Shown one piece after another: positions 2,430 through 34,239 of a DNA stretch of 64,000 nt. The notes under the pieces are model-generated. The model was not told the DNA's origin. It ran no database searches and was given only the letters and a program-made list of their open reading frames with translations. Origin of the DNA: Acidimicrobiales bacterium (GTDB lineage Bacteria > Actinomycetota > Acidimicrobiia > Acidimicrobiales > Bog-793); contig DATLRJ010000138.1 in NCBI GenBank assembly GCA_035534715.1, positions 37,266 through 101,265 on the forward strand. Direction: 5' to 3'. Position 1 is the stretch's first letter. Every line of letters begins with the position of its first letter. Both the position numbers and the translations under genes were made by a program.

Positions 2430-2430
2430 G

Positions 2431-6969: not shown

Positions 6970-6991
6970 CCCCGAACACTGCGTTTTCTCG

Positions 6992-17692: not shown

Positions 17693-19105
17693 GTGAACGG
17701 CCCGCTTCCGGGCGGCGGTGGCCTCGTGCTCGTAGATGGCCGCCCGGCTTCGTGGGAGCCCGCCGAGGTCGCGCGCGCGGCGGCGTCGCTCGATGCGGCG
17801 GGCCGCTCGCTCGACGAGCTCGCGTCGGCGTGCCCGCGCGAACGAGCCGAGGTGCTCGCTGCCGCGGCGCTCGTCGTCGATGCGGGACTCGCCGACCGGC
17901 TGTTGGAAGCCACCTGGCGCGGGGTCGACGCCCGCGTCGCGCTCGCGGGAGCGTCGCGCGTCGCGGTGCGGTTCCCGGTCGATCGGGCCCTCGTGTGGTC
18001 TGCGCGACTTCGCGACGGCGGGCTCGCGGCGTTCTGTCCGCTCGTCGGGGGCGCCCGCGACCTCGAGCAGCGGCCGAGCGAGCGCGCGCGCCGCGCCGCG
18101 GTGGCGTGGCGGGCGTTCGCGGACGCGGACGCCCGCGCACTCGCGGTCGCGGCTGCATCGGAGATCGCGAGCCGCAGTGTGTCCGAGTCGTTGAACGAGG
18201 AGCTCGCGGTGCTCGCCCCGGACGTGCGTGCCGAGCTCGACGCGATCGTCGGCGAGGTCGCAGGGGGGCCCGGGCGCCCGAGCCGGGCGTCGGACGGCAC
18301 GAGCACGCGCGTGAGCGTGGTCGTGACGCTCTCGGACGCCGACCCGGCTGGGAGCGCAGAGCGGTGGGAGGAGCTCGTCGGGTCCGGGCGTGACGAGCTC
18401 GTCGCGGCCGTCCTCGCGCCGCATGGTTCCTCCGGCGCTGCGGTGGAGTCGACGGCGGGTGCGAGCGGGCTCGACCGGGAGCCCAGCGGCGCGCTCGCGG
18501 TCGCCGCGAAGCACCGGGCCGCGTGCGACGCGGTGGGTGACGTGCTCGTGTTCGTGGACGGCTCGCTCCACCCCGCCCCGGCGTGGCTGGACGGGATCCT
18601 CCGGACCTTCGAGGAGCATCCCGACGTGGCGGTCGTGGCGCCGTTCGTGCGATGCGAACCTCCCGCGGGTTCGCCTGAGAGCGTCGCCTGCGGTGTGGAG
18701 GTGCTGCTCGATGCGAGGTACGCGCCGACGCTCGCCCTGCGCCCGTGTCCGGTCCCGCCCGACGCGCGGGGGCGCGCACTGCCGGTCGGGGAGCTGCAGT
18801 CGGGGGCCGCCGAGGCGGTCGCGGTCAGGCGGTCGGCGTTCGCCCGAGTCGGTGGCTTCGAGACCTCGCTGCCCGAGCCGTTCGCGACGACCGACCTGTG
18901 CCTTCGGATCGGAGCGCTCGGGCTGCGTGTCGCATCCGCGCCGCAGAGCTCGCTGCGACGACTCGCGACGCGCCACGGGGTCGTGCCACGCCCGGTGACC
19001 GGGGGTGCGGAGCAATTCGACCGTCGCTGGCTCGGTGTCGTGGGCCCGGACCTCGTCGTTGGGTTCGTGCCCGGTGGACGCGTCCCGTCGCGCGAGGAGG
19101 CGTGA
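17693..19105 (+). CDS. GT2-like glycosyltransferase with novel N-terminal module
   Basis: The protein is 470 aa, and its GTG start is uncertain. The C-terminal half carries GT2-like motifs (VLVFVDGSLHPAPAWLDGIL, AVRRSAFARVGGFETSL). The N-terminal ~190 aa include a module shared with the 1478-aa protein. Confidence 0.6.
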   Translation: MNGPLPGGGGLVLVDGRPASWEPAEVARAAASLDAAGRSLDELASACPRERAEVLAAAALVVDAGLADRLLEATWRGVDARVALAGASRVAVRFPVDRALVWSARLRDGGLAAFCPLVGGARDLEQRPSERARRAAVAWRAFADADARALAVAAASEIASRSVSESLNEELAVLAPDVRAELDAIVGEVAGGPGRPSRASDGTSTRVSVVVTLSDADPAGSAERWEELVGSGRDELVAAVLAPHGSSGAAVESTAGASGLDREPSGALAVAAKHRAACDAVGDVLVFVDGSLHPAPAWLDGILRTFEEHPDVAVVAPFVRCEPPAGSPESVACGVEVLLDARYAPTLALRPCPVPPDARGRALPVGELQSGAAEAVAVRRSAFARVGGFETSLPEPFATTDLCLRIGALGLRVASAPQSSLRRLATRHGVVPRPVTGGAEQFDRRWLGVVGPDLVVGFVPGGRVPSREEA

Positions 19106-21162
19106 TGAGCGCTCGCGACCTCGCCCGCCCGGCACTCCTCACGCTCGTGGCGCCCATGTCCGGCACCGGCACGGACGCGCTGGAGGCCCTGCTCGCGACG
19201 TGCGCGTCCCCGTTTCTCGGTGGGACCGAGGTGGTCGTCGGCGTCGACCCGTCACGGGCCGCCGACGCGACGGAGCGCGCGGCCGCGAGCGGAGCGCGCG
19301 TGTCCGTGGTTCCGACGTCGCCCGACGACGTGGGACCGCTGCTCGCGGCGGTGCACACCGCGTACCTCGCCCCTGTTCCGTCCTCGGGCGATCCGGCCAC
19401 TGCTTCGGCACGCCTCGCGCGGTGCGTCGCCGGGCTCGAGTCGAACCCGGGCGCGACCGTTGCCGGATCGGGGCGGTCGGGTTTCGAGCGGGACGTGCCG
19501 ACGCTGGTCGACGGGCGGAGCCTCGCGGCGGCGGCCCTCGCGCGCGGGTGCTCGCCGCACGACGGGTTCGACGCAGTGGTCGTGCGGACCGCGGCGCTCG
19601 GGTCGGAGCGCTCGCTCGTGGGGTTCCACAGTGGCGGCGCCGGCGACTGGACGGACGTGCTCGCGCTCCGGCTCATGCTCCGCGGCCTCGTCTGGTGCGA
19701 CGACGTGGCGGGCGGCCCGCGCGCGGCCGATGGGCCGTCGCCGGCGCGCGCGGAGCGGGTCGCGTCGGACGCGGTGCTCGACGAGGCGCGCGTTCTCGGG
19801 CTCCTCCCGCACGGTGACCGTGCGCGGCTCGCGCTCACCGCGATCGTCGTCGCTGAGGACCCCGGCACGCTGCGAGGCGGGCGGCTCCTCGCGCTCGCGA
19901 GCGCCCGGCGCGCGAGCGCGCTGGTCGAGCGGGTCGTCGTGCTCGAGGACGCCGACGAAGGGCTTGCGGTGCCTGTCGAGGGAGTCGAGTGGCGACAGGT
20001 CGCGCGACAAGGACGCGCGGCCGCGTTGGACGAGCTCGCCGGGGTGCTCGGCCCCACGGTCGTGCTGCACGCCGGGGAGGAGCTCGTCGTCGGTGACGCG
20101 GGACAGTTCGCCGCCCGCCTCGCAGAGATCGGGAGCGGCTCACCCGGCTTCTTGCGGACGCCGTCGGGGGTGGAGGCACGCGTCGCGGACGGCCGTGCCG
20201 TCCGGTTGGAGCCGAAGGTGCAGCTGCTCGGAGGCGAGGCGATCAGGAGCGCCCGCGTCGCGCCGCTCGGGGGGGACGGCGACTGGCTCCGCGTCGCCGC
20301 GGACTCGGCAGGGGCCTCCGCCCGGCGCAGGACGCGGTTCGCGGTGCTCGCTCCCGACTACACGGGAGGGTCGGGCGGGAGCGTGGCGCTCCACCGGCTG
20401 TGCGACCTCCTGAACGCGCGCGGGTGCGACGCGTCGATCGTCCCGCTGGAGGCCGCCGGGATCGTGAACCCCTCGTGGCGCACGCCGGTGATCGAGCGAG
20501 CCGGTGCGCTTCCCGACGACACGATCGCGATCTATCCGGAGGTCGTCGTCGGAAACCCGCTCGGTGCGCGGCGCGTGGTGAGGTGGCTGCTGAACCGCCC
20601 GGGTCGACTGAACGGCGGGCGCGCGATGCAGGAGCGGGCCGAGGACCTTCTCGTCGCCTACGACCCGCAGATTGACGGCTCGCTACCGGTGCTCTGGGTC
20701 CCGATCATCGACCCGACGGTCTTCTTCCCGAAGGACCGTCCGGGGCGCGGGCGGCTGCTCTGGGTCGGAAAGGGCGAGGTTTCCCGTGCGCTCGACCGCT
20801 CGGTCACGACGCTCGTCACGCGGAGCTGGCCGGCGACGAAGGCGGATCTCGCGGACGCGCTTCGCGCCGCGGACGTCTTCGTGACCTGCGACTGGCTCAC
20901 CGCCCTCATCGGCGAGTCCCTGATGTGCGCGACCCCCGTGGTCCTCGTCGACGGCCAGGAGTGGTCGCCGGACGTGCTCGGGTGCTTCGACGTCGCGGCG
21001 CGACGCGGGATCGTGAGGTCGTGCGAGGAGGACGGCGCGATCGAGCGGGCACGTGCCGGAGCGGCGGCCTTCCACGCTGCCTACACGGGTCGCTACGAGC
21101 GAGCTGCCGACGGCGTCGACGCCTTCGTCGAGCTGGTGGGGGAGCACTTCGCGGGCGTGTGA
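19105..21162 (+). CDS. large uncharacterised protein, degenerate GT-A-like N-region and GT-B-like C-region
   Basis: The protein is 685 aa from ATG 19105, overlapping the upstream TGA by 1 nt. The C-terminal region reads FAVLAPDYTGGSGGSVALHRLCDLLNARG...LWVGKG...ADVFVTCDWLTALIGESLMCATPVVLV, suggesting a GT-B fold. The family is not recognised. Confidence 0.5.
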   Translation: MSARDLARPALLTLVAPMSGTGTDALEALLATCASPFLGGTEVVVGVDPSRAADATERAAASGARVSVVPTSPDDVGPLLAAVHTAYLAPVPSSGDPATASARLARCVAGLESNPGATVAGSGRSGFERDVPTLVDGRSLAAAALARGCSPHDGFDAVVVRTAALGSERSLVGFHSGGAGDWTDVLALRLMLRGLVWCDDVAGGPRAADGPSPARAERVASDAVLDEARVLGLLPHGDRARLALTAIVVAEDPGTLRGGRLLALASARRASALVERVVVLEDADEGLAVPVEGVEWRQVARQGRAAALDELAGVLGPTVVLHAGEELVVGDAGQFAARLAEIGSGSPGFLRTPSGVEARVADGRAVRLEPKVQLLGGEAIRSARVAPLGGDGDWLRVAADSAGASARRRTRFAVLAPDYTGGSGGSVALHRLCDLLNARGCDASIVPLEAAGIVNPSWRTPVIERAGALPDDTIAIYPEVVVGNPLGARRVVRWLLNRPGRLNGGRAMQERAEDLLVAYDPQIDGSLPVLWVPIIDPTVFFPKDRPGRGRLLWVGKGEVSRALDRSVTTLVTRSWPATKADLADALRAADVFVTCDWLTALIGESLMCATPVVLVDGQEWSPDVLGCFDVAARRGIVRSCEEDGAIERARAGAAAFHAAYTGRYERAADGVDAFVELVGEHFAGV

Positions 21163-21232: not shown

Positions 21233-23962
21233 TCAGCCGGCGAGCGCGGCGAGCGGCCGGCTCCCGGGCGTTCCACCGGCGCTCGGCTCGCTCACTTGCG
21301 AGCCGAGCGCGCTCGGGTGCACCTGCGCGACGCGCTCGAGCGCCTCACGAACCGCCTCGCCGACTTCCTCCGCGCACGTTCCGCGCGCCACGAACGCCAT
21401 GTGCACGAGGCGCGCGCTCAAGCCCTCGAGCGCGCGGGCGAAGCGCTCCGGCTCCGCGAGCCGGCCGGCGTCGTGCGCCCGGCCGACGAGCTCGAGCCAC
21501 TCGAGGTGCTCGACGACCCCGCCGAGCTCGCGCCCGTACTGGCCGTCGTGGAGCCGCAGCTCGGACTGCGGCTCGGCGACGTACGCGACGTCGCCGCGCT
21601 CGAGGAGCGCGATCCAGGTCGAGACGTCGAGCAGCGACGTGAACTCCTGTCCCCGGTAGGTCGAGAACTCTTCCGGGCGCATCGCGTCCCTGCGGAACAT
21701 CGCGGTGGAGGGCTCGCCGACGAAGTTCACGCCGTGCTCGAGGACCAGGTCGGCGACCATCACCCCGGCGAACACGGTGTCGGCCTCGGCGAGGCGCGAC
21801 GTCGAGGCGATCGGCACGAGGGGGCGGCCGGCGCCGTCGATGACGTCACGGGCGGACGTTGCCACCGACACGCCGGCGCGCGATGTGGCGGCCGCGACGA
21901 GTCGCGCGACGGCCGTCGGCCGGAGTCGATCGTCGGTGTGGACGAACTTCACGTACTCGCCGGTGGCGAGCTCGAGGCACCGGCGGTGGTTTCCGACGAG
22001 GCCGAGGTTCGCGCGGTTCGGCTCGAGTCGCACGCGCTCGTCGACGCGCGCGTACCGCTCGGCGACACGGCGGGCGTCGTCGAGCGAGCAGTCGTCGACC
22101 ACGACGATCTCCAGGTTGTCGTAGGTCTGCGCGAGGACGGAGTCGAGGCACTGCGCGAGGTACTCGGCGTGGTTGTGGACCGGGACGAGGACGCTCACGA
22201 GCGGGCCCGAGACGCTTCGCGGTGCCGGCCCCGCGGACCCCGGTGCGGCGGCCGCGCGCAGGTCGCCGGGGACCCCGACGCGCAGCGCCGGGAGCGAGGC
22301 GAACCGCCCGGACGCGCCGCGGCCGGAGAGCACGCCGACGACCTTCGCGGCGATCTCCTCGCGCTGCGCGTCGCCGTCGCTCGGCGGCAGGATCGCGATC
22401 ACGCGCGGCCCGCCGTCGAGGTCGACGTCGCAGCGGCTCGCGAGCGCCCTGAGCGAGGACTCGTACGCGACCGGGTCGAGACCGGGACCGTAGACGACGA
22501 GCGCGAGGTCCACGTCAGGAGAGGACGCGGCCGCGTACGTCGCGAGGATGCGCTCGTCGTCGAGGAGCTCGCGGGCGTCCGCGAGGACGAGGGAAGGTGA
22601 CGGTGCCGGCGTGTCGCCCGCCACGCGCGCCCCGCCCGCGCCGGGGTCCCGCCCCGGCCGGGGGTCGGTGCGGAGTGCGGCAGGGGCGACCGCGCACTGC
22701 GCGTCGGGCGGCGGGACGGCCTCGCCCGCGGCGAGCGCGCCGACGACGGCCTCGAGGCGCTCGCCGGCGTGCGCCGCGGCCGTCTTCCACTGCCAGGCCC
22801 GCTCGACGTCGGAGCGCGCCCGTGCCCCGATCGAGCGGGCCCGCGCCGGGTCCGCGGCGACGAGCGCGAGGAGGCGCGCGAGGTGCTCGGCCGACGGCTC
22901 GGCCCAGTGCTGGCCCCGATAGTGGGCGACGTCCATGTCGTCGTCGACGGGGACCATCCGCTCGACGTCGACGAGCAGGGAGTTGTCGTCGTTCATGAAC
23001 TCGAGGTTCGCGCTCCAACGCGTGGCGATGACCGGGCGCCCCGTGGCCATGGCCTCGTGCTGCGGTCGTCCCCACCCCTCGCCACGCGACGGTGCGACGT
23101 AGCAGTCGGCCGCGGCGACGAGCCGCGGGACGTCCGAAGGGGGCAAGTGCGCGCCGAGCACGACGATCGGGGCGAGCCGGGACCGGTCGAGCCCGAGCGA
23201 CGCGAGCCCGGCGTCGACCATCAGCTCTGCCGTTCGCTGCGCGTCGCCCACGTTCTCGAACATGCTCCTCGGATACGTCCGCAGCACGAGCGTCGCGTCG
23301 TCGAGCGCGCCGAACGCGAGCGACCAGGACCGCAACAGCACGTCCCATCCCTTGCGATGGCTCCACTCGAACATCGAGAGGAAGACCGTCCCCCGCCGTC
23401 CCGAGATCGGGAGCGGGCTGAGGCCGGGGTGGAAACGACGGGCGTCGACGCCGGCGCCGACGACGGCGATGGGCACGCGCACGCCGGCGGCGCGGAAGGT
23501 CTCGAGGTTGAACTGCGACGGGACCCAGACCTCGTCGACCGTGTTGAGGTTCTCGACGCTCGACGGGTGGAGGCCGTCCGTCTCGAACATCGTGCGCGCG
23601 ATCGTGTAGTCGGCGCCGGAGACCGGCCGGAACGGGGCGGTCGCGGGGAGGTGGAGCACGCCGACGCGCGGGCCCGCGCCGGCGAGGTCCATCGACGCGA
23701 CGAGGTCGGTGAAGAACGCGGGGTCCTCGGCGGCGACCTGCTCGGCGAAGCCGAGCACCGTGTCGACGGGGACGGCCCTGAGCGGGTAGCCGAGCCGGCG
23801 GAGGTGCTTCGCGAAGCCGCGCGCCTCGTCGCCGTAGCCGGTCGGCGTGAACATCGGTGCGATCCAGTCGACGACACCCGGGCAGTGTGTGCCCGGAAGC
23901 CGGGACGCGCCGGCGCCATTGGCGCGCGCACGCCCCCTCAGGTGCGTCGCCCGCGTGCTCAT
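21233..23962 (-). CDS. bifunctional GT4 (N-terminal) + GT2 (C-terminal) glycosyltransferase
   Basis: The protein is 909 aa from ATG 23962 (ATGA overlap). The GT4 motif is SRGEGWGRPQHEAMATGRPVIAT. The GT2 motif is VSVLVPVHNHAEYLAQCLDSVLAQTYDNLEIVVVDDCSLDD. The 1243-aa ORF-track entry is extended at its N-terminus. Confidence 0.8.
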   Translation of the reverse strand: MSTRATHLRGRARANGAGASRLPGTHCPGVVDWIAPMFTPTGYGDEARGFAKHLRRLGYPLRAVPVDTVLGFAEQVAAEDPAFFTDLVASMDLAGAGPRVGVLHLPATAPFRPVSGADYTIARTMFETDGLHPSSVENLNTVDEVWVPSQFNLETFRAAGVRVPIAVVGAGVDARRFHPGLSPLPISGRRGTVFLSMFEWSHRKGWDVLLRSWSLAFGALDDATLVLRTYPRSMFENVGDAQRTAELMVDAGLASLGLDRSRLAPIVVLGAHLPPSDVPRLVAAADCYVAPSRGEGWGRPQHEAMATGRPVIATRWSANLEFMNDDNSLLVDVERMVPVDDDMDVAHYRGQHWAEPSAEHLARLLALVAADPARARSIGARARSDVERAWQWKTAAAHAGERLEAVVGALAAGEAVPPPDAQCAVAPAALRTDPRPGRDPGAGGARVAGDTPAPSPSLVLADARELLDDERILATYAAASSPDVDLALVVYGPGLDPVAYESSLRALASRCDVDLDGGPRVIAILPPSDGDAQREEIAAKVVGVLSGRGASGRFASLPALRVGVPGDLRAAAAPGSAGPAPRSVSGPLVSVLVPVHNHAEYLAQCLDSVLAQTYDNLEIVVVDDCSLDDARRVAERYARVDERVRLEPNRANLGLVGNHRRCLELATGEYVKFVHTDDRLRPTAVARLVAAATSRAGVSVATSARDVIDGAGRPLVPIASTSRLAEADTVFAGVMVADLVLEHGVNFVGEPSTAMFRRDAMRPEEFSTYRGQEFTSLLDVSTWIALLERGDVAYVAEPQSELRLHDGQYGRELGGVVEHLEWLELVGRAHDAGRLAEPERFARALEGLSARLVHMAFVARGTCAEEVGEAVREALERVAQVHPSALGSQVSEPSAGGTPGSRPLAALAG

Positions 23963-26900
23963 CCAGCGACCTCGAGGCGACGCTCGGGCTGTGGCGCGGG
24001 CGGACCTGCATCGCCGCGGGTCGCGGCGTCGAACCCGCGCACGAGCGACCCGGGCGCGGCGTCGGGCTCGCGGGACGCTGCTGAGGCATGCAGCACCGCG
24101 GCGATCCGCTCCGCTGCACGCTCGGCCGCGTGCTGCCAGGTGAAGGCCTCGACGATGCGTTGGCGGCCGCGCGCGCCCTTCGCCCTCGCCGTGTCGGGGT
24201 TGTCGACGACGGCTCGCATCGCTGCTGCGAGCTCGCCTCTGCTCGGCTCGAGCCACCACGCGCCGGCGTCGGTAAGGGTCCAGCTGCCCGGTCGCACGGG
24301 CACCTCGCGCGCAGCGACGAGCCAGGCGTTCCGCTCGTCGCAGAAGTCGCGCGCCGCGCCGCCGTCGGTCACGACGACTGCGAGGCCGGACGCCATCGCC
24401 TCGGCGATCGGCATGCCGAACCCCTCCCCCCGGTACGGGTGCACGAGGGCATCGCAGCTCCGGTAGAGCGCGGCCATCTCGGCGAAGTCGAGATCCCCGT
24501 CGACGATCTCGATCTCGGCGCCCGCGCCGGAGACCGCGGCTCGGACGTCGCGTTCGAGAGACGACGTGCGGTACACGCTGTCCGATCCGAACGGCTTCAG
24601 CACGAGGCAGACGTCGTCGCTCGGTGCGAAGCTCGACAGGTACGTCTCGAGCAGCGCGTCGATGCCCTTGCGCTCGATGAGGCCGCCGACGAAGAGCAGC
24701 TTCGTGCGCTTGCCCGTGCGCAACGGGTACACGTCGCCGTCCGGGCGGAAGCGCTCGACGTCGACCCCGTACGGCACGACGTGGACGTGCTGTGGCGCGA
24801 CTCCGCTCCGGATCGCGCACTCGCGCACCCAGTTCGTCGGCACCCAGAGCTCGTCGACGACGTCGCGGATCGGGGCGATCCACTCGGCGGGGAGGCCGCC
24901 GAACTCCCACGGCTGCATCACGACGAGGCGACCGTCCCGCACCGGTGTGAAGTCGGGCGGCCACTGGTGGCGGATCTCCAGGTCCACCCGGCGCGACGGC
25001 GGGGCGGGCTCGACCGTGATCGCCCGCATCGCGTCCGTGGTGTCGCCCCGGCGAGGCGGGTGCTCACGGGTGCAGGCGCTGAGGTCGTGCTCGCCGCGCG
25101 CGGCGAGCGCGACGAGGAGCTCGCGGTTCATCTGCGACAGGCTCGCGAGGCTGAAGACCTCGCCGCTCACCCGGACACGCGGGCGCCCCGGCGCGGGCGC
25201 GTGCGGCGACGCGGGCGGTACGAGCGGAAGCTCTGCGAGGGGGTCGCCGACGTCGGCCTGCCGTGCCGCTGCGACATCGGGCACGCGCGCAGTCCACGGC
25301 GCGTCCTGCTCGAGCAGCTGTCGCACGCTCGCGAGCGCCGCGTCGAGGTCGTCGTGCGCCCCGCCGAGGGCGATCGACGGGATCCCGGACGCGGCCGCGA
25401 GCGCGTGCCAGGTCTCGGCGTCCTCGGCGAACGGGACGACCGCGACTCGGGCCGCGCGCAGCCAGGTCGTCGGGTCGGCGACCGCGCCGGCGACGACCGC
25501 CGAGGGCACCGGCGCGCCGAGCCGGTCGTGCGGATCGTCCCCGCAGATCACGACCGGGTGGGCCGTCGCGATCGCGGCGAGCGCCGGGCCGACCGACCGC
25601 GCGTACCACGAGAGCTCCGCGTCGCTCCGGCAACGCGAGCTCGCGAGCACAATGACGCCCTCGCGCGACGCGAGGTCGCCGCCGGCCCCGGGAGCGTCGA
25701 CGCGCGCGTCTGGCGCCGGCACGAGCGCGTACGGGACGTCGCTCGCGTGGCGCGGCGAGGAGCCGAGCAGGAGGTCGACCGGCGGGCCCGGGGGGAGGTC
25801 AAGCCCGCCCGAGGCGAGGTCGACGGCGATCGCGCCGGTCGGCAGGACCGCGCGTGCCGCGCCGACGCTCGAGACCGCGCGGGCGGTCACGAGGACCGTG
25901 TCGAAGGGGCGCTCCGCCGCGCACCGCGCGATCGACGACCTCGCGGCCTTGTCGTCCTCCGCCCGCGACAGAAGGCCGCTCGTCGTCCATCCGCGCAGGC
26001 GCACTCCCCGGCGCTCGAGCATGGCGCTCGAGGCCTGCGAGGGGTCCGGTGCGAGCAGCGTCACGTCGTGGCCGGCTCGTGCGAGCACGAGCGCGAGCCC
26101 GACCGCCCGCGGGTTGCACGACTCGCGGTCCACGACGAGCACCGAGCGCGCCACCCGGGGGCCGGACGCGGACGGCGGAGCGACTGCGCCGGCGGCGTCC
26201 GCAGCAGCCGTGCGCACGCGTTCGAAGCGCGCGGCGAGCGCCGGCGCGATGGCCGACACCTCGGTGGCGACGGTCGCCGCGTCGACGGTGTCGAGCGCGA
26301 GCGCCGCGGCGGTGAACGTGAGCCGGGCGCGTGGATCGCCGAAGACTGCGCAGGCCGCGGCCGCCGCGAGTACCCGGTCGCGCGGCGCGATGCGGGAGTC
26401 CGCGGACGTCGCGACGAGCGGGCACGCGGACGAGAGGCCCGCGGCGCGCAACCGCGAGGACCAGACGAGTTGGCGGGAGACGTCGAGCCGCCGCGCGACG
26501 TGTGTCGCGGCGGCGAGCACGGGCGTCGAGGCGGGCGCTCGCTCGTACCACGAGTCGAGCGTCCGGTCGGCGACCGCCGGCTGCAGCTGGAGCAGCTGCG
26601 GGACGAAGTGCTGGAGCCGGTCGCCGATCGCGTCGTAGGCCTCCTGCGGACCACGCCCCGCGGCGTCGAGGCACTCGAGCAGCAGGCCGACGTGGGCGTC
26701 GACCCCGCCGCTCTCTTGGATCGAGCCGAGCAGCGCGTCGGCAGCCTCGCCGTGGCGACCGAGCCCGACGAGGGCCTGGGCCTCGGGCACGGCGACCGTC
26801 GCGCGCGAGTACTCGAACCCGTCCTCGTCGATCGCGTCGCGGACACGTCCGAAGTGCTCGAGCGCCCGGTCGTGCTGATCGAGCGCGAGGTGGGCGGCAC

Positions 26901-28395
26901 CCGCGAGGGAGTCGGCGAGCGACGTGTTCGAGGAGATCGCCCGCAGCCGGTCGATCTCCTCGAGGGCCTCCTCGGCGCGCCCGAGCGCGAGAAGGCAGTT
27001 CACGGACGTGCGGAGCGCGAGGCGCGCGGTCGAGGGGGCTGCCGCGACCTCGGCGGCCCTCCGGCAGTGCGCGAGCGCCTCCTCGAACCTCCCGTTCAGG
27101 ACGTACGAGCGGCCGAGGCTCGCGAGGCGCACCCCCCAGTCGAGCTCGGAGTCGCCGGCGAGATCGGCGAACGCGGTGCGGATGTTACGCGCGGCCTTGT
27201 CGCGCCCGGTGATGTGGGACTGGAGGTAGCCGCGATGGGTGATCCGGACGAGCGAGGTGAGCTCGCGGGCGAGCTCCCGCGTGCCGGCTCGCGCGACGAC
27301 GAGCTCGTGGAGCCGCCCCTCCCAGTGCCCGTACGCGCGGCGGAACAGCCGGCACGCAGGGTGGACGAAGGTCGATGCGGCCTCGTTGCCCTGCTGGTTC
27401 TCGATGTGCACGACGAACGCCTCGCGCTCGGCCGTCATCGCGGCGAGCGAGTCGCGCAGCCCCGCGGGATCGGGGCACACGAGCGACTCGTCCGCGTCGA
27501 CCCACAGGATCCACTGGCCGCGGCAGGCGGCGAGCGCGTCGTTGCGGGCGCGACCGAAGTCGTCGTCCCAGTATCCGGCGAGCACGCGCGCGCCGGCACG
27601 CGACGCGATCTCGACCGTCGCGTCGGTCGAGCCCGTGTCGTACACGACGATCTCGTCGGCGACGGCGGTGAGCGACTCGAGGCACCGGGGGAGCTCGAGC
27701 TCCTCGTCCTTCACGATCAGGCACGCGGTCACGAGCGGGAGGTCCGCGTCTCGCGGGTCGGGGCGCAGCGGCACGCCGCCGCGGTGGTGCACGTAGCACC
27801 GTTCGACGACGGCGAGGTGCAGCCCGAGCGCGCGAAGCGAGGTCGAGACGTGCGCCGGGTCGTAGCCGCGCGTCGCGACCGCCTCGAGACCGCCGACCGT
27901 CTCGAGACGGTCGCGACGGAGCGCGAGGCAGGGTCCTGCGAGCACGCCCGCCTCGGTCGGCTGGGTTTGCGAGGCCGCGAGGTCGCGTGCGAACTGCCGG
28001 CGCAGGCCGATCTCGTGCGGGCGGTACGGCACGCCGACCTGGAGCTCGTCGCCGTCCGCGAGGTTCGTGCGCGGCGCGACCGCGCCCAGCCTGTCGTCGT
28101 CGAGCGCGCCGACGAGCGCGTCGATCCATCCCGGTACGAGCTCGAGGCGATCCTCGACGAACACGACGGCCGGGCGCAGTTTCGGGGCCGCGGCGCCGGT
28201 GACCCGCGCGAGCGCGCCGCCGCGTGCCGGCCGGCGCCACGCGCCGGGGTCGTCGGGCCCCGGGCGCGCGCTCCCTACGACGAGGACGTTGTCGTGCGCG
28301 CCGAGGTCGGCCGCGACGTGTGCGAGGAAGGCCTTCGTCGCCTTGCGGTCGTCGCCGGCCACGACGCAGATCGTCGCCGCGATTGCTCGGCCCAT
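23959..28395 (-). CDS. 1478-aa multi-module glycosyltransferase: GT2-like + GT2 + TPR-like repeats + shared unknown module + GT-B-like + GT4
   Basis: Module 1 carries VVFVEDRLELVPGWIDAL...LRRDRLETVGGLE. Module 2 carries ACLIVKDEELELPRCLESL..EIVVYDTGSTDATVEIA..WILWVDADE. Helical repeats follow (RFEEALAHCRRAAEV, LGRAEEALEEIDRL, DQHDRALEHFGRV). The C-terminal GT4 carries YRGEGFGMPIAEAMASGLAVVVTD. The gene is divergent from fliC. Confidence 0.85.
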   Translation of the reverse strand: MGRAIAATICVVAGDDRKATKAFLAHVAADLGAHDNVLVVGSARPGPDDPGAWRRPARGGALARVTGAAAPKLRPAVVFVEDRLELVPGWIDALVGALDDDRLGAVAPRTNLADGDELQVGVPYRPHEIGLRRQFARDLAASQTQPTEAGVLAGPCLALRRDRLETVGGLEAVATRGYDPAHVSTSLRALGLHLAVVERCYVHHRGGVPLRPDPRDADLPLVTACLIVKDEELELPRCLESLTAVADEIVVYDTGSTDATVEIASRAGARVLAGYWDDDFGRARNDALAACRGQWILWVDADESLVCPDPAGLRDSLAAMTAEREAFVVHIENQQGNEAASTFVHPACRLFRRAYGHWEGRLHELVVARAGTRELARELTSLVRITHRGYLQSHITGRDKAARNIRTAFADLAGDSELDWGVRLASLGRSYVLNGRFEEALAHCRRAAEVAAAPSTARLALRTSVNCLLALGRAEEALEEIDRLRAISSNTSLADSLAGAAHLALDQHDRALEHFGRVRDAIDEDGFEYSRATVAVPEAQALVGLGRHGEAADALLGSIQESGGVDAHVGLLLECLDAAGRGPQEAYDAIGDRLQHFVPQLLQLQPAVADRTLDSWYERAPASTPVLAAATHVARRLDVSRQLVWSSRLRAAGLSSACPLVATSADSRIAPRDRVLAAAAACAVFGDPRARLTFTAAALALDTVDAATVATEVSAIAPALAARFERVRTAAADAAGAVAPPSASGPRVARSVLVVDRESCNPRAVGLALVLARAGHDVTLLAPDPSQASSAMLERRGVRLRGWTTSGLLSRAEDDKAARSSIARCAAERPFDTVLVTARAVSSVGAARAVLPTGAIAVDLASGGLDLPPGPPVDLLLGSSPRHASDVPYALVPAPDARVDAPGAGGDLASREGVIVLASSRCRSDAELSWYARSVGPALAAIATAHPVVICGDDPHDRLGAPVPSAVVAGAVADPTTWLRAARVAVVPFAEDAETWHALAAASGIPSIALGGAHDDLDAALASVRQLLEQDAPWTARVPDVAAARQADVGDPLAELPLVPPASPHAPAPGRPRVRVSGEVFSLASLSQMNRELLVALAARGEHDLSACTREHPPRRGDTTDAMRAITVEPAPPSRRVDLEIRHQWPPDFTPVRDGRLVVMQPWEFGGLPAEWIAPIRDVVDELWVPTNWVRECAIRSGVAPQHVHVVPYGVDVERFRPDGDVYPLRTGKRTKLLFVGGLIERKGIDALLETYLSSFAPSDDVCLVLKPFGSDSVYRTSSLERDVRAAVSGAGAEIEIVDGDLDFAEMAALYRSCDALVHPYRGEGFGMPIAEAMASGLAVVVTDGGAARDFCDERNAWLVAAREVPVRPGSWTLTDAGAWWLEPSRGELAAAMRAVVDNPDTARAKGARGRQRIVEAFTWQHAAERAAERIAAVLHASAASREPDAAPGSLVRGFDAATRGDAGPPAPQPERRLEVAG

Positions 28396-28484
28396 CCGTC
28401 CTCCCTCGCCGCTCCCGGGTGCGCGCGCCGGCTACGGCCGGTGACTGCGCTCGGAGGTCCCTTACGGCATCGCGGAAGAATCGT

Positions 28485-28512
28485 TCAAGTCCCGCCGCGC
28501 TCGCGCCGATAG
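28485..28512 (+). promoter_or_regulatory. sigma-28 (FliA/SigD/WhiG-type) promoter candidate for flagellin
   Basis: The sequence is TCAAGTCC (28485-28492), a 12-nt spacer, then GCCGATAG (28505-28512). The class consensus is TAAAGTTT-N11-GCCGATAA. The -10 element matches at 7 of 8 positions. It lies ~105 nt upstream of the fliC ATG. Confidence 0.5.
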
Positions 28513-28571
28513 ATCACTCGGTCCTCGAAACGGGGGCTCCCGGGCGCACCGAGCGTTCGGGACCAGCAACG

Positions 28572-28595
28572 ACGGCCCGCACGGACGCGGGCCGT
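28572..28595 (+). promoter_or_regulatory. fliC 5'-UTR hairpin presenting GGA in its loop
   Basis: A perfect 9-bp stem, acggcccgc / gcgggccgt, encloses the 6-nt loop acGGAc. A second GGA lies in the Shine-Dalgarno region ttGGAGaaacggATG (28607-28621). Confidence 0.55.
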
Positions 28596-28618
28596 ACTCA
28601 CGAGAATTGGAGAAACGG

Positions 28619-29452
28619 ATGTCTTCTCTCGTCGTGAACACGAACCTGTCTGCCATCGGCGCGTACAACAACTTGAACGCGACCGACACGCAGATGAGCA
28701 AGGCGATCCAGGAGCTGTCGTCGGGTCTTCAGATCCAGACGGCGGCCGACGGTCCCGCCGCGTACGTGCAGAGCCAGGCGCTCGAGTCCCAGGCGAACGG
28801 CTACCAGCAGGCGATCTCGAACGCGCAGGACGGCGTCTCGCTCGTCCAGACCGCGTCGGGCGCGCTGAACCAGATCTCGTCGATCCTCCAGACGATGGAC
28901 CAGTTGGCGGTCTCCTCGGCGAACGGCGCCACGAACGACGCGACGTCGCTCAGCGCCAACCAGCAGGAGTTCAAGAACCTCCAGTCGAGCATCGACCAGA
29001 TCGCGAGCACGACGAGCTACGGCACCACGAACCTGCTCGACGGCACGTTCTCGAACCAGACCCTCCAGGTCGGGGCGTTCGACTACACGAGCCAGCAGAT
29101 CACGCTCAGCATCGGTGGCGCGTCGACCGGCGCGCTCGGCGTCGCCAGCAGCTCGGCGTCCGTCGGCACCGCGCAGGCCGCCGCGAGCGCGATCGCACTC
29201 GTCCAGGCGGCGATCGCGTCGGTGGACTCCATCGAGGCGAACGTCGGTGCCATCCAGAACCAGCTCCAGGCCATCGCTGCGAACCTCACGGTCGGCCAGC
29301 AGAACCTGAGCGCTGCGAACAGCCAGCTCGTCGACGTGAACATGGCGCAGATGATGACGCAGTTCTCGACCGACCAGATCCTGATGCAGACGGGTACGGC
29401 GATGCTGTCCCAGGCGCAGCAGGCACCTGCTCTCGTCGAGAAGCTCATCTGA
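28619..29452 (+). CDS. fliC: flagellin (minimal D0/D1-type, 277 aa)
   Basis: I place the start at ATG 28619, after GGAG; the ORF track starts at TTG 28607. The N-terminus is MSSLVVNTNLSAIGAYNNLN...SSGLQIQTAADGPAAY. The C-terminus is SQLVDVNMAQMMTQFSTDQILMQTGTAMLSQAQQAPALVEKLI. Both are canonical flagellin termini. Confidence 0.95.
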   Translation: MSSLVVNTNLSAIGAYNNLNATDTQMSKAIQELSSGLQIQTAADGPAAYVQSQALESQANGYQQAISNAQDGVSLVQTASGALNQISSILQTMDQLAVSSANGATNDATSLSANQQEFKNLQSSIDQIASTTSYGTTNLLDGTFSNQTLQVGAFDYTSQQITLSIGGASTGALGVASSSASVGTAQAAASAIALVQAAIASVDSIEANVGAIQNQLQAIAANLTVGQQNLSAANSQLVDVNMAQMMTQFSTDQILMQTGTAMLSQAQQAPALVEKLI

Positions 29453-29530: not shown

Positions 29531-32050
29531 ATGACCACGAGCGCAACGACAGCGACGGGTTCGAGCAACAACGCACCGCTGATCGTGAACGGCCTGATCT
29601 CGGGTATCAACACGACGTCGGTCATCAACGCACTTCTGCAGGCGTACCAGGCGCCGATCACGAACCTGAAGAACGAGCAGACGTCGCTCGGCGGAAAGGC
29701 CGGCGACTACGGCGTCGTGAACACCGACCTCCAGCGGCTCGTGACCGCTGCCCAGGCGCTCAGCACGAGCTCCTCCTGGAACCTCGCGACGGCGTCGACG
29801 TCCGACTCGAGCGTCGCGACCGCGACCGCGTCCCCGGGCGCGCAGCGCGGGACCACGACCTTCACGGTCGACCAGCTCGCGCAGGGCAACATCATCGCCT
29901 CCCAGGGGGGCGTCGCGTCCACCGGCACGGTCGTGACCTCCGCTGCGTCGCTGCTGCTCGCGACCGGCGGGGACGCGCTCGGACTGTCGAGCTTCTCCTC
30001 GACGGGAGCGCTCGCCCTCGGGAGCCACGTGATCGACGTGACCCAATCCTCGTCGGCCGGCACGGTCACGGGCGCGACGGCGCTGCCGGCGACGTCCACG
30101 ATCACCACGGGCTCGAACGACACGCTCGCCTTGTCGGTCAACGGGACCGCGTACACGCTCACGCTCGCGGCGGGGACGGCCGAGACGCCGACCGGCGTCG
30201 TCGCCGCGATCAACGCCGCCGCCACCGCGGCGGGCGCGGGTGTCACCGCGTCGCTCAGCTCCACCGGCGCGCTGCAGCTCGCGACGAACGAGCAGGGCAG
30301 CGCTGCGAGCCTCTCGGTGACCGGCGGCACCGCCCTCGCGACGCTCGGGCTGAGCTCGGGCCAGTCGGGAACCGGCACGGACGCCGTCGTGACCGTCGAC
30401 GGCACCTCGACGACCCTGTCCTCGATCACGCCGGGATCGACGGTGACCCTCGGTGCCCCCGCAGGTTCGATCGTCGCCACCGTCGCCTCCTCGCCGGGTG
30501 CGGGAGGCGCGCTGCTCAAGGCCGGCAGCGCGTCGGCCGACCTCGTGTCGACGGGCACCGGCAGCCTGTCCGACGTCGTGTCGGCGATCAACGGTGCGAA
30601 CCTCGGAATGACCGCGTCAGCGGTCCAGGACTCGGCGGGCACGTACCTGCTCCAGGTCGCCGCGAACGGCACCGGGCTCGCGGGCTCCGCGAGCGTGGAC
30701 GCGAGCGCGTTCGCCGGAGGCGCCCTCGGCTCGTTGAACACGATCTCGTCGGCGCAGGATGCGCTCGTGAACGTCGGCGGCACGGGCGGCTACCAGCTGA
30801 GCTCGTCGACGGACGTCTTCACGAACCTCCTCTCCGGAACCGCGGTGACCGTCGCGGCGACCGGGCACGCCACCGTGACCGTCGCACCGGACGCGTCGGG
30901 CGAGGCGACGCAGGTGAGCACGCTCGTCAGCAGCGCCAACCAGGTGCTCACGGACATCAACCAGGTCGCCGGGTACAACGCGGCGACGAAGACCGGCGGT
31001 CCGCTCATGGGTTCCGCGGTGCTCCAGGGCATCCAGCAGCAGATCCTGTCGATCTTCGCGAGCGCCGCGGGCGCGTCGGGCTTCGGCAACGCGCTGTCCG
31101 CGGGCATAAGCCTCACGTCGACGGGCTCGGTCACCTTCGACCAGACGAAGTTCGAGAGCGCGTTCAGCGCCAACCCGACGAAGGTCGCGGCGCTGTTCGC
31201 GCAGGGTGGCACGTTCGCTCCGACGTCGTCGGCCTACACGGGCTCCGTGAGCTTCGTGTACGCCAACGACTCGACCCAGAGCGGGACCTACGACGTGCAG
31301 GTGAGCCAGTCCGCGACCCAGGCGAGCGTCACCGGCGCGGCGCTCGCCTCGGGCGCGGTGAGCGCGGCCGAGACGCTCACGTTCGCGTCGGCCGGTGCGA
31401 CGGCCTCGTACACGACGACCGCGGGGGAGTCGCTCGCGACGATCGCCTCGGGTCTCGACCAGCAGTTTGCCGCGCAGGGTCTCGGCCTGTCCGCGTCGGT
31501 CGTCAACAGCGGGACCCAGCTGTCGGTGTCGAGTAACGCGTACGGGAGCGCCACGACCTTTACCGCCACCTCGACGAGCACGGCGGCGGGAACGACCGGA
31601 CTCGGCGGGGCAAAGGCCGGCACACCGACCACGTACTCCGGGACCGACGTCGCGGGCACGATCAACGGCGTCGCTTCGACGGGGTCGGGGCAGGTGCTCA
31701 CGGCCCCGTCGAGCGACCCGACGCTCGCGGGCATCTCGCTCATGGTCGCGGCGTCGGGCATCACGAGCCTCACGGACCTCGGGTCCTTCACGTACTCGCC
31801 CGGGCTAGCGCAGCAGCTCCAGACGCTCGCGAACACCGCGTCGAACCCGGTGAACGGCACGGTCACGACGACGATCTCGAGCCTGACGAACGAGTCGACG
31901 GGCCTCAACACGCAGATCGCGAACTACCAGTCGGTCGCGACGGCCCAGCAGACGCTCCTGCAGAACGAGTTCGCGAAGATGGAGACCGCGCTCGGGACGC
32001 TCAAGAACCAGGCTGCCGCGCTCGGCAGCCAGATCGCGCAGCTCCCGTGA
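29531..32050 (+). CDS. fliD: flagellar filament cap protein FliD (unusually long, 839 aa)
   Basis: The N-terminus LIVNGLISGINTTSVINALLQAYQAPITNLKNEQ and the C-terminus ISSLTNESTGLNTQIANYQSVATAQQTLLQNEFAKMETALGTLKNQ are FliD-type. The centre is S/T/G/A-rich. It sits between fliC and fliS. Confidence 0.85.
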   Translation: MTTSATTATGSSNNAPLIVNGLISGINTTSVINALLQAYQAPITNLKNEQTSLGGKAGDYGVVNTDLQRLVTAAQALSTSSSWNLATASTSDSSVATATASPGAQRGTTTFTVDQLAQGNIIASQGGVASTGTVVTSAASLLLATGGDALGLSSFSSTGALALGSHVIDVTQSSSAGTVTGATALPATSTITTGSNDTLALSVNGTAYTLTLAAGTAETPTGVVAAINAAATAAGAGVTASLSSTGALQLATNEQGSAASLSVTGGTALATLGLSSGQSGTGTDAVVTVDGTSTTLSSITPGSTVTLGAPAGSIVATVASSPGAGGALLKAGSASADLVSTGTGSLSDVVSAINGANLGMTASAVQDSAGTYLLQVAANGTGLAGSASVDASAFAGGALGSLNTISSAQDALVNVGGTGGYQLSSSTDVFTNLLSGTAVTVAATGHATVTVAPDASGEATQVSTLVSSANQVLTDINQVAGYNAATKTGGPLMGSAVLQGIQQQILSIFASAAGASGFGNALSAGISLTSTGSVTFDQTKFESAFSANPTKVAALFAQGGTFAPTSSAYTGSVSFVYANDSTQSGTYDVQVSQSATQASVTGAALASGAVSAAETLTFASAGATASYTTTAGESLATIASGLDQQFAAQGLGLSASVVNSGTQLSVSSNAYGSATTFTATSTSTAAGTTGLGGAKAGTPTTYSGTDVAGTINGVASTGSGQVLTAPSSDPTLAGISLMVAASGITSLTDLGSFTYSPGLAQQLQTLANTASNPVNGTVTTTISSLTNESTGLNTQIANYQSVATAQQTLLQNEFAKMETALGTLKNQAAALGSQIAQLP

Positions 32051-32451
32051 GCGTGGGGGCCACCGATCAGGACGAGTCGCTCCGCCGGTATCTCGCCGAC
32101 CAGGTCAGGACCGCGACGCCGGCCCAGCGGCTCGTCATGCTCTTCGATCAGCTCCGACGCGATCTCCACTGCGCCGCGGCCGCGTTCGAGGGTGGCACGT
32201 TGAAGGAGATCTCCGACAACCTCGTCCATGCGCAGCACGTCATCATCGCCCTGCGCGACCCCCTCGACACCGAGACCGAGCTCGGGCGCGCGCTCTCGGG
32301 CATCTACGGCTTCTGCCTCCAGCACCTCGTCACGGCCAACCTCACGAAGGACCCGTCGATGCTCCCCGACGTCCAGACGATCGTCGACCGCCTCGCCGAC
32401 GCCAATCGCGCGGCTGTCGCCTCGTTGCAGGTTCCCGCCAGTGTCGGCTGA
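32047..32451 (+). CDS. fliS: flagellin-specific chaperone FliS
   Basis: The protein is 134 aa from a GTG start (GTGA overlap with fliD). It carries LVMLFDQLRRDL...AQHVIIALRDPLD...LSGIYGFCLQHL, a FliS four-helix pattern. Confidence 0.88.
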   Translation: MSVGATDQDESLRRYLADQVRTATPAQRLVMLFDQLRRDLHCAAAAFEGGTLKEISDNLVHAQHVIIALRDPLDTETELGRALSGIYGFCLQHLVTANLTKDPSMLPDVQTIVDRLADANRAAVASLQVPASVG

Positions 32452-34150: not shown

Positions 34151-34239
34151 CGCCCCCGGCGCGTCCGGATGTGGCGCGCGGACGGTTCCGAGCTCGCGTG
34201 CCTCGGTGCTCGGCCCGTCGCGGGCGCCGCCGAGCCCGC

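Follow-up and report, generated by a model that had tools for sequence, protein, structure and literature searches.

What does a single polypeptide with several glycosyltransferase (GT) folds do beside a flagellin gene? In the window analyzed here, the whole 64,000-nucleotide stretch of contig DATLRJ010000138.1 from an Acidimicrobiales bacterium, a gene of 1478 codons for six modules (23959..28395, minus strand, stop codon within these coordinates; Pfam GT2, TPR and GT4) lies next to fliC in a flagellar cluster of about 50 kb. The combination of TPR and GT2 beside fliC is an accepted signature of flagellin glycosyltransferases, and much work has been done on flagellin glycosylation in Proteobacteria and Firmicutes; our literature search found no report of it for Acidimicrobiia or Actinomycetota. 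Using homology and synteny, we assign the protein, hereafter the giant GT, with somewhat better than even confidence as a GmaR-type or TPR-GT2-type flagellin O-glycosyltransferase, soluble and cytoplasmic, that is fused to extra modules.

The reading frame proved to be uninterrupted, as a preliminary description of this locus had claimed. It begins with an ATG preceded by a Shine-Dalgarno sequence (GAGGGAGGA), and the GC content at its three codon positions is 0.78/0.55/0.93 along the whole length (GC3 0.93). On the same codon-position GC, a plus-strand ORF at 24088..28512 was rejected as a gene and is an antisense shadow of the giant GT. A metagenome protein, also of 1478 aa, departs from it at a single residue (Q560R), and homologues at 40-57% identity, about 50 of them full-length, measure 1300-1540 aa. 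Given this protein of the same length and these long homologues, we exclude a frameshift or an artefactual fusion as the origin of the giant GT. Annotation of the homologues is generic throughout, and wherever a source is named it is a metagenome assembly. With a maximum Kyte-Doolittle value of 1.48 over 19-mers, the sequence stays below the usual threshold for a transmembrane helix, consistent with a soluble protein. Pfam searches and AlphaFold2 models (pLDDT 94.5 and 89.7) bear out the proposed division into six modules, all described below by minus-strand coordinates.

The preliminary description had envisaged an assembly line with several active sites. Among the four GT-like modules, catalytic motifs survive at two canonical sites, in the GmaR-like GT2 and in the C-terminal GT4, whereas the N-terminal GT-A and middle GT-B folds have lost theirs. 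The GT2 catalytic domain is module 2 (aa 215-400; 27196..27753), which contains KDEE, DTGSTD, DADE and HE and matches PF00535 with E 7.5e-20; the motifs DTGSxD, DADE and HE, including D300-A-D302-E303, are invariant in 67 of 67 sequences. Upstream of it, module 1 (aa 1-212; 27760..28395) is modeled with the beta/alpha topology of a GT-A fold at pLDDT >90, and has a weak Pfam match to GT21 (E 1e-3) and no significant GT2 match across aa 1-212. When these residues were examined as a GT2-like GT-A domain, neither a nucleotide-binding motif of the DxGSxD type nor a DxD/NxD metal site was found. A canonical GT2 occupies this position in distant relatives (PF00535, E 1e-63 for the entire protein with its three GT2 stretches), and their DNGSTD, LNNDT and EDDDLC correspond to VVG-SAR, VEDRL and DPAH in the giant GT subfamily. 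An hhalign comparison of modules 1 and 2 gave E 2e-4, covering the first strand and helix only.

The two modules that follow are helical. Module 3 (aa 401-601; 26593..27195) consists of about 10 paired helices in the AlphaFold2 model and resembles TPRs: Pfam scores for TPRs at aa 424-521 are under the gathering threshold, while comparison with consensus-TPR proteins in the PDB gave E 2e-5 and the module's profile matched designed TPR/PPR proteins with E 1e-17 to 1e-30. Module 4 (aa 602-740; 26176..26592) is a family-specific domain of eight helices, modeled at pLDDT about 97, for which Pfam and PDB searches returned no match. It is among the best-conserved parts of the giant GT, with invariant columns at D610, R641, W645, S646 and C658-P659-L660. 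Its motif was found in 316 cluster representatives at E<=1e-3, and in most of the matches listed it occupies about residues 590-750 of proteins of either ~740 aa or 1300-2000 aa.

Module 5 (aa 751-1044; 25264..26145), the least conserved part of the giant GT, forms two Rossmann lobes in the AlphaFold2 model and appears to be a divergent GT4-type GT-B fold that is probably non-catalytic. Scanned alone in 17 members of the family, it gave weak Pfam matches in the correct order, with Glyco_transf_4 in 9 of the 17, Glyco_trans_4_4 at a best E of 2.5e-5 and Glyco_trans_1_4 at E 4.6e-4. Alignment to module 6 by hhalign (E 0.035) placed the EX7E region in equivalent register; neither EX7E nor the phosphate-binding lysine was found in module 5, and the family consensus there reads GAxHWLAAAAxCGTP. 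A PDB profile search with aa 745-1050 gave nothing better than E 0.5, and the same profile returned nothing from a search of 5.8 billion proteins, in which alanine-rich words probably swamped the candidate list. Modules 1 and 5 are probably pseudo-enzymes, motif loss alone being no proof of inactivity.

Module 6 (aa 1073-1441; 24073..25179) is by the same standards a canonical GT4, the retaining GT-B type, with a GT-B fold, a phosphate-binding loop of the form G-R-x-x-x-K-G and an EX7E motif (RKG and RGEGFGMPIAEAMASG). It matches PF13692 (E 4.5e-24) as well as PF00534, PF20706 and PF13439, and its Foldseek matches include GlgM, MshA, PglA, PimA and WaaG (E 1e-16 to 1e-10). RKG and the full EGFG..E are intact in the giant GT and its 20 closest homologues; the other 23 of 43 aligned homologues have a degenerate module that has lost the lysine and the first glutamate of EX7E. 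Because of this loss, a two-step scheme from GT2 to GT4 may be limited to the closer half of the family. The loss would also suit a protein with one working site, in which the GmaR-like GT2 adds a monosaccharide to flagellin as GmaR does and the other GT-like modules, the GT4 included, are structural, substrate-holding or regulatory; such a protein would likewise explain why family-wide motif invariance is confined to the GT2 and why, of four GT-like modules, two show visible degeneration. We consider this rather unlikely for the giant GT itself, in view of the strong PF13692 score and of the motif retention in its closest homologues, which suggests purifying selection on catalysis.

Gene context, too, points to flagellin as the acceptor. 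As first described, the giant GT is head-to-head with the flagellin gene (28619..29452, plus strand), the start codons of the divergent pair being separated by 223 bp. The 277-aa flagellin (Pfam Flagellin_N E 4.5e-32, Flagellin_C E 2e-16) has its likely start at ATG 28619, with a Shine-Dalgarno sequence, and Ser/Thr account for 28% of its central region (aa 96-200). fliD and fliS follow (29531..32451, plus strand; Pfam FliD_N/C and FliS), in a gene order that is the same in homologous loci. Upstream of fliC, a promoter-like element of sigma-28 type, TCAA-N16-GCCGATAG, can be read at 28485..28512 on the plus strand; of the 11 head-to-head loci, 9 have a similar element at a distance of ~60-124 nt to the ATG, and when six loci were aligned, its TCAAG...CGAT core was the sole block conserved between the genes. 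Comparison of the head-to-head loci showed no clearly conserved promoter for the giant GT, and a scan of the intergenic region for sigma-70 promoters and terminators found nothing. A second sigma-28-like element directed toward the GT, sharing a palindromic -35 (TTCAAG/CTTGAA), is present at 5 of 11 loci; we do not claim it as a promoter, as so loose a pattern has by rough estimate ~0.3 chance occurrences per strand per locus.

The linkage to flagellin is a property of the family. Loci with the N-terminal-half architecture were found only in metagenome genomes of Acidimicrobiales/Actinomycetota. Flagellin is encoded within 6 kb at 17 of 18 loci with this architecture (11 head-to-head, 6 co-directional), versus 4 of 69 for relatives that have the GT2 only, and relatives as distant as about 38% identity keep the linkage. 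In the homologous loci that we read, the giant GT is always within a flagellar cluster, between fliC and flhA. Elsewhere, the flagellin gene of Desulfacinum infernum is immediately preceded by genes for unfused equivalents (two GT2-TPR proteins, a TPR protein, GT4s and a GT2+GT4 protein), and the Paenibacillus anaericanus locus L029 has tandem ORFs of ~375 aa and no fused giant.

Directly downstream of the giant GT is a gene for a 909-aa protein with an N-terminal GT4 and a C-terminal GT2 by Pfam (21233..23962, minus strand). Start-codon analysis places its ATG across the TGA of the giant GT (ATGA), an overlap that argues for an operon and translational coupling of the two genes. Its GT4 shares 34% identity with module 6, and both of its domains have canonical motifs (HRKG and SRGEGWG..HEAMA in the GT4, VVVDDCSLDD and TDD in the GT2); judged by these motifs, it contributes two further intact sites, which were absent from the preliminary description. 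A counterpart is found downstream at five loci (L001, L003, L004, L008 and L016) and is fused to the giant GT in P0020. Together, the ATGA overlap and this fusion suggest a joint function.

The adjacent sugar island of ~20 kb encodes a nonulosonic-acid synthase, a CMP-transferase, an aminotransferase, dehydratases and methyltransferases. In the five full-length homologous loci that we read, the 10-kb flanks showed no genes for nonulosonic acid. One island protein of 470 aa, the 17693 protein (17693..19105, plus strand), has no Pfam match and combines a copy of the module 4 motif (aa 66-123) with a degenerate GT-A-like region. It had been described as having a module in common with the giant GT at aa 620-730; the shared stretch is real (46% identity over 59 aa, BLASTP E 1e-8), but it extends over aa 608-666. 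The region at aa 262-434 of the 17693 protein has weak BLASTP similarity to the N-terminal GT-A-like module (E 0.011). No orthologues of the 17693 and 19102 proteins were found in homologous loci, and the former as a query matches only the helical module of giant GTs.

Could the acceptor be something other than flagellin? The fliC proximity might reflect only co-regulation with late flagellar genes, with the FliD cap, hook, pilin, S-layer or a cell-wall polymer as the substrate. Indeed, every full-length locus that we read has fliD adjacent as well, and polysaccharide synthesis commonly involves GT2/GT4 pairs (NCBIfam returned sub-threshold matches to EpsE, TuaG and others). Yet the linkage follows the flagellin gene in both orientations, flagellin is the substrate of the closest characterised homologue, the giant GT is without membrane segments, and no Wzx/Wzy/ABC export or polyprenyl-phosphate transferase genes were seen in the island, all of which make another substrate quite improbable. 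Synteny, and the fact that membrane and export components are missing, led us to reject cell-wall polysaccharide synthesis in particular.

We therefore return to flagellin as the acceptor and propose the following scheme. The TPR region, possibly with the family-specific helical domain, would hold unfolded or chaperone-free flagellin before export, while the inverting, DxD-dependent GT2 would put a first sugar from a UDP-sugar on Ser/Thr of the Ser/Thr-rich flagellin center. A second sugar may be added by the C-terminal retaining GT4, and the glycan could be extended further by the translationally coupled 909-aa GT4+GT2 protein, with unusual donors supplied by the sugar island. The N-terminal GT-A and middle GT-B would be decayed duplicates, most likely serving as scaffolds or as acceptor- or nucleotide-binding modules rather than as catalysts. 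A more ambitious version would make the giant GT a self-contained, processive assembly line for a flagellin glycan, in which the decayed GT folds hold the acceptor and hand it over between the two live sites and the helical domain docks island enzymes into one flagellin-glycosylating complex. The 17693 protein, encoded separately, does carry the motif of this domain, and further proteins have it at their N-terminus. We regard this version as unlikely; if true, it would amount to a counterpart of modular megasynthases for protein glycosylation, in a phylum for which we found no description of flagellin glycosylation.

With the simpler scheme, we infer that the giant GT is an uncharacterised fused variant of known TPR-GT2 flagellin glycosyltransferases. 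It overturns no current view, the core logic of TPR and GT2 near fliC being accepted already. What the family offers is a testable candidate with a hierarchy of modules, from an invariant, GmaR-like initiating GT2 through variable extending modules to two pseudo-enzyme folds. It could reveal how soluble transferases build an oligosaccharide directly on a protein and how active sites share substrate-binding repeats, and one chain that recognises flagellin and adds two sugars may be of use in glyco-engineering.

The closest known system is GmaR of Listeria monocytogenes, an experimentally established flagellin GlcNAc transferase (PMC9638930). Its GT domain (22ao_A) is the best solved relative of module 2 (33% identity over 198 aa, E 1.4e-27; E 1.6e-50 with the family profile), and this match, along with the conserved flagellin linkage, supports the reading as a flagellin glycosyltransferase put forward in the preliminary description. 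Similarity to GmaR141-637 (PDB 7X9R, E 7e-12) extends into the first TPRs, the profile match continuing through residues ~148-273 (7X9R chain residues 8-133). Both proteins have a GT2 catalytic domain (GmaR residues 1-~180) with an intact DxD and TPRs directly C-terminal to it, and both genes are linked to flagellar genes and to a small flagellin of similar size (277 aa here). Unlike GmaR, which has 637 aa and four domains, the giant GT places a degenerate GT-A before the GT2-TPR core, and another helical domain, a degenerate GT-B and an intact GT4 after it.

GmaR combines beta-O-GlcNAc transfer to flagellin with a role as anti-repressor of MogR, and a second function of this kind had been suggested for the giant GT: the helical region C-terminal to the TPRs would sequester a transcriptional or translational flagellar regulator and so couple glycosylation capacity to fliC expression. 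Module 4 does sit where GmaR has its linker and antirepressor domains, its conservation is high, the gene is divergent from fliC, and the fliC leader has CsrA-type motifs. Nonetheless, the GmaR similarity ends after the first TPRs, with no sequence match in the giant GT to the linker or antirepressor (MogR-binding) domains; the top 50 Foldseek matches of the model do not include 7X9R; and no MogR-type Pfam domain was found among roughly 50 window proteins scanned. Recurrence of the helical motif in the 17693 protein fits a docking or acceptor-binding role better. The suggestion thus goes unsupported, and we judge it highly improbable.

By structure, the top Foldseek matches to the N-terminal model are the glycocin S-glycosyltransferases SunS and ThuS (PDB 7MSN, 7MSP and 7MSK; E 5e-14, TM 0.59-0.72 on the target), which share the arrangement of a GT2 with helical, TPR-like repeats and act on a protein or peptide. 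In contrast to these enzymes, the giant GT has a flagellar context without a glycocin precursor, is much closer in sequence to GmaR, and scores 55.8 bits over aa 217-407 against the SunS family TIGR04195 of NCBIfam, for which the cut-off is 350. Caulobacter FlmG, a pseudaminic-acid flagellin transferase, joins an N-terminal TPR region, shown by experiment to bind flagellin, to a C-terminal GT-B (residues 309-596) (PMC7591256). In layout, its order of a helical region and a GT-B of ~290 aa is mirrored by aa 401-740 and 751-1044, and a NeuB/CMP-transferase pathway is encoded in the island of the giant GT; module 5 differs in giving weak GT4-type matches and in missing conserved catalytic residues. 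Binding of flagellin through TPRs is reported for Maf-1 as well, in work cited in PMC13317340; the MAF_flag10/MptE-like domain (PF01973) of the Maf type was not found by Pfam in the giant GT or any island protein. Several transferase folds per chain also occur in multi-domain polymerases with tandem GT folds and TPR scaffolds. In Foldseek comparisons the two GT-A folds align with E. coli K4CP (2Z86; E 8e-11, ~540 columns) and the C-terminal model with the A. pleuropneumoniae capsule multienzyme 8QOY over ~1046 columns (E 8e-14), but these polymerases make free polysaccharides, are 10-14% identical in sequence and have no flagellar context. The predicted flagellin GTs of Firmicutes with GT2 and TPR (for example in Clostridium, PMC13317340) have both this hallmark and a sugar-gene island context in common with the giant GT; whereas they carry a single GT in roughly 400-700 aa, the giant GT unites four GT-like folds in the 1478 aa of an actinomycetotal protein.

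As the window has a G+C content of ~72%, long chance ORFs occur on both strands, and real ORFs were told from chance ones by codon-position G+C. The ORF at 23959..28395 (-), which encodes the 1478-aa glycosyltransferase (the giant GT), has a G+C of 0.78/0.55/0.93 at codon positions 1/2/3, with third-position values of 0.90-0.96 in each 100-codon block; by the same measure the overlapping + strand ORF at 24088..28512 is its mirror image. The sequence GAGGGAGGA is found upstream of the giant GT's ATG at 28395. A metagenome protein of equal length (1478 aa) differs by one residue (Q560R), and about 50 homologues with 40-57% identity are 1300-1540 aa long, thus excluding an assembly or frameshift artefact and upholding the uninterrupted frame claimed in the preliminary description. 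The flagellin gene fliC (28619..29452 (+); 277 aa; Pfam Flagellin_N, E 4.5e-32, and Flagellin_C, E 2e-16) lies on the opposite strand across a divergent spacer of 223 bp, its likely ATG at 28619 is preceded by GGAG, and fliD and fliS follow it. All belong to one flagellar cluster that spans window position 1 to about 49.9 kb and includes flhA, flhB, fliPQR, fliMN, flgE, flgD, fliK, fliI/H/G/F, fliE and rod genes.

Other genes of the cluster deserve mention. At its boundary, a MerR-family regulator (49996..50496 (-)) is encoded directly upstream of the flgB-side end. After fliS comes a 101-aa protein with no Pfam match (32441..32746 (+)), kept there in four homologous loci (L001, L003, L005 and L008); it might be a FliT-like protein or a flagellar chaperone that has escaped recognition. 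A 501-aa MTS/PrmA/lysine-methyltransferase-like protein (32738..34243 (-)), encoded between flhB and the genes on the fliS side and in the same position in L001 and L003, could modify a flagellar protein, an idea tempered by the composition of the window flagellin (only three Lys and no Arg).

In the giant GT, Pfam places a GT2 domain at aa 225-329 (E 7.5e-20), a GT4/GT1 C-lobe at aa 1231-1364 (E 4.5e-24) together with a fragment of a GT4 N-lobe, and sub-threshold TPR matches at aa 424-521. Two AlphaFold2 models built from family alignments (aa 1-750, pLDDT 94.5, pTM 0.88; aa 590-1478, pLDDT 89.7, pTM 0.89) together give six modules: a GT-A fold (module 1, aa 1-212), a second GT-A fold corresponding to the Pfam GT2 (module 2, aa 215-400), about ten paired helices (module 3, aa 401-601), eight more helices (module 4, aa 602-740), a two-lobed Rossmann (GT-B) fold (module 5, aa 751-1044) and a second GT-B followed by a disordered tail (module 6, aa 1073-1441). 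This agrees with the modules first listed from sequence, with one boundary shifted: a stretch is indeed common to the giant GT and the 470-aa protein encoded at 17693..19105 (+), at aa 608-666 (46% identity, E 1e-8) rather than 620-730. Residues 262-434 of the 470-aa protein also weakly resemble module 1. Throughout the giant GT, hydrophobicity over 19-residue stretches stays below the level usually taken to indicate a membrane helix, as would fit a soluble protein. Foldseek searches of the PDB matched the N-terminal model to the SunS/ThuS peptide glycosyltransferases, which combine a GT2 with a helical domain (E 5e-14), to K4CP, a chondroitin polymerase with tandem GT-A folds, and to TPR proteins, and the C-terminal model to the retaining GT4 enzymes GlgM, MshA, PglA, PimA and WaaG and to a TPR-containing capsule multienzyme.

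Module 4, with no relative in Pfam or the PDB, is a signature of the family: at E<=1e-3 it has matches in 316 cluster representatives. Most of the matches listed place it at about residues 590-750, within proteins of either ~740 aa (modules 1-4 only) or 1300-2000 aa; a few have it at the N-terminus of other proteins, as in the 470-aa protein.

The four GT-like folds differ in their catalytic motifs. Across a 67-sequence alignment, module 2 keeps K/R-D-E, Y-D-T-G-S-x-D, W-D-x-D-F-x-R-A-R-N, D-A-D-E and H-E as invariant or near-invariant. Module 6 has canonical R-K-G and R-G-E-G-F-G-x-P-I-A-E-A-M-A-x-G (EX7E) motifs in the giant GT and its 20 closest homologues, and its lysine and first glutamate are gone in the other 23 aligned homologues. 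In distant relatives, module 1 is a bona fide Pfam GT2 (whole-protein E 1e-63 across three GT2 stretches) whose motifs are V-V-V-D-N-G-S-T-D, F-L-N-N-D-T and E-D-D-D-L-C, positions that read V-V-G-x-x-R, V-E-D-R-L and D-P-A-H in the subfamily of the giant GT. Module 5, the least conserved region, gives weak GT4 N-lobe and C-lobe matches in the right order when scanned alone, and profile-profile comparison brings it into register with module 6 precisely over the EX7E region, where its consensus (G-A-x-H-W-L-A-A-A-A-x-C-G-T-P) has neither glutamate. From these motifs we conclude that two of the four folds are predicted to be intact enzymes; modules 1 and 5, having lost theirs, are probably decayed duplicates. 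The several active sites proposed earlier would then apply to modules 2 and 6 and probably not to modules 1 and 5.

The linkage to flagellin is conserved. The five full-length homologues examined, at 42-57% identity, are all head-to-head with fliC-fliD-fliS, lie between the filament genes and flhA in flagellar clusters, and have at least one further GT gene downstream. Flagellin is likewise linked to two distant relatives whose module 1 is canonical, head-to-head in one case and at a distance of 2.5 kb in the other. When one genome was scanned for each GTDB species, the core motif of the GT2 proved widespread, and the N-half architecture (loci L008-L018) was found only in Acidimicrobiales/Actinomycetota MAGs. 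Using the window flagellin as a tblastn query against 6-kb flanks, we found flagellin at 17 of 18 architecture loci (11 head-to-head, six co-directional downstream) and at 4 of 69 loci of GT2-only relatives. Directly downstream of the giant GT, a 909-aa GT4+GT2 protein with canonical motifs in both domains (21233..23962 (-)) has a start ATG that overlaps the giant gene's TGA; its GT4 is a paralogue of module 6 (34% identity), the gene is kept in several loci, and in the 2036-aa homologue P0020 the giant protein carries a homologue of this GT4 as a fused part. Parts of the same kinds occur unfused in a cultured deltaproteobacterium, Desulfacinum infernum DSM 9756 (L019, region 21..11936), directly upstream of a 280-aa flagellin; they comprise 763-aa GT2+GT4, 782-aa GT4+GT4 and 572-aa GT4 proteins, two GT2-TPR proteins of 580 and 545 aa, and a TPR protein of 443 aa. 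One of these GT4s is 48% identical to that of the 909-aa protein, and the set could be an experimental stand-in.

Given the homology to Listeria GmaR, a flagellin transferase characterised by experiment, the invariant catalytic residues and the tight, conserved fliC linkage, the giant GT is most likely a cytoplasmic flagellin O-glycosyltransferase, as had been proposed. Flagellin binding would fall to the TPR region, on the model of GmaR, FlmG and Maf-1 (PMC9638930, PMC7591256, PMC13317340); the inverting GT2 would place a first sugar on Ser/Thr in the Ser/Thr-rich middle of flagellin (28% Ser/Thr over aa 96-200), the retaining GT4 (module 6) would add a second, and the coupled 909-aa protein would lengthen the chain. 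We hold this reading, stepwise mechanism included, to be probable, with moderate confidence. Its main rival, in which the GT2 alone is catalytic, we regard as unlikely.

A ~20-kb island between the GT operon and flhA encodes a CBS-NeuB-SAF-TIM fusion, a PseF-like cytidylyltransferase, an aminotransferase, dehydratases, a nucleotidyltransferase, a TPP enzyme, three methyltransferases and two oxidoreductases, content suggesting that the glycan here may carry unusual sugars, including a nonulosonic acid. None of the homologous loci read showed the island within its 10-kb flanks; the core role of the giant GT therefore seems independent of it. Its nonulosonic-acid synthase (12052..14298 (+), 748 aa) is an unusual four-part fusion of CBS, NeuB, SAF and a xylose-isomerase-like TIM barrel (AP_endonuc_2) that scores better against the NeuB/NnaB model than against PseI, below both cut-offs; the fusion recurs in L088 and, with no recorded CBS match, on the contig of the homologous protein P0126. 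Also in the island is an acetolactate-synthase-like TPP enzyme (7197..9089 (+), with 2431..5725 (-)) adjoining nucleotidyltransferase, 4,6-dehydratase and aminotransferase genes, a setting that recalls branched-chain or acylated deoxy-sugar pathways, e.g. YerE-type. A 686-aa protein (19102..21162 (+)) is unmatched in Pfam, NCBIfam and the PDB, and a search of 5.8 billion proteins yielded just seven homologues. In both other contexts read it again belongs to this cassette (CBS-NeuB-SAF-TIM fusion, SDR, GFO oxidoreductase, methyltransferase, DegT and epimerase), and one of these contexts adjoins FliW/FlgK/FlgN, a GT2-TPR gene, flagellin and FliD. Since the window has no Maf or recognisable FlmG, this protein qualifies as a candidate nonulosonic-acid transferase, the activity otherwise missing here, or as a candidate for another pathway step.

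Within the spacer, a conserved sigma-28-type element (28485-28512, TCAA-N16-GCCGATAG) lies ~113 nt upstream of fliC, and similar elements occur in 9 of 11 head-to-head loci. A possible second element faces the GT gene (28461..28490 (-), TGAA-N15-GCCGTAAG), its -35 overlapping the palindromic -35 of the fliC promoter (TTCAAG); we make no claim for it, as possible mirror-image elements in 5 of 11 loci are no better than a rough chance estimate for this loose pattern (about 0.3 per strand per locus). In the ~105-nt fliC leader (28513..28618 (+)) there is a hairpin, CCCGCACGGACGCGGG, whose loop carries GGA and which can be recognised in the closest loci (L001, L003 and L008); the Shine-Dalgarno sequence holds a second GGA. 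Such a pairing of loop and Shine-Dalgarno GGA is typical of CsrA binding sites, and the CsrA and FliW genes in homologous loci L003-L005 suggest FliW-CsrA control of flagellin translation.

The best solved relative of the giant GT is the glycosyltransferase domain of GmaR (22ao_A; E 1.4e-27, 33% identity over 198 residues; family profile E 1.6e-50), a flagellin O-GlcNAc transferase and MogR anti-repressor (PMC9638930); SunS/ThuS are more distant (E 1e-10). With the family profile, similarity extends to the beginning of GmaR141-637 (7X9R; E 7e-12 over chain residues 8-133), where the GT domain ends and the first TPRs follow, which bears out the GmaR-type GT2 plus TPR likeness noted before. Unlike these shared parts, the GmaR linker and antirepressor domains were matched by no part of the giant GT in sequence and profile searches, and 7X9R was outside the top 50 Foldseek matches of the N-terminal model, where generic TPR proteins were present; the GmaR-like regulatory second function once considered conceivable thus finds no support. 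Four aspects appear to be uncharacterised: the fusion of six modules, its two pseudo-GT folds, the helical domain that marks the family, and the occurrence in Acidimicrobiia, on which literature searches found nothing. A TPR plus GT2 protein next to fliC is the accepted signature of flagellin glycosyltransferases (PMC13317340), and the giant GT, as a comparative-genomics finding, is solid and testable but not surprising.
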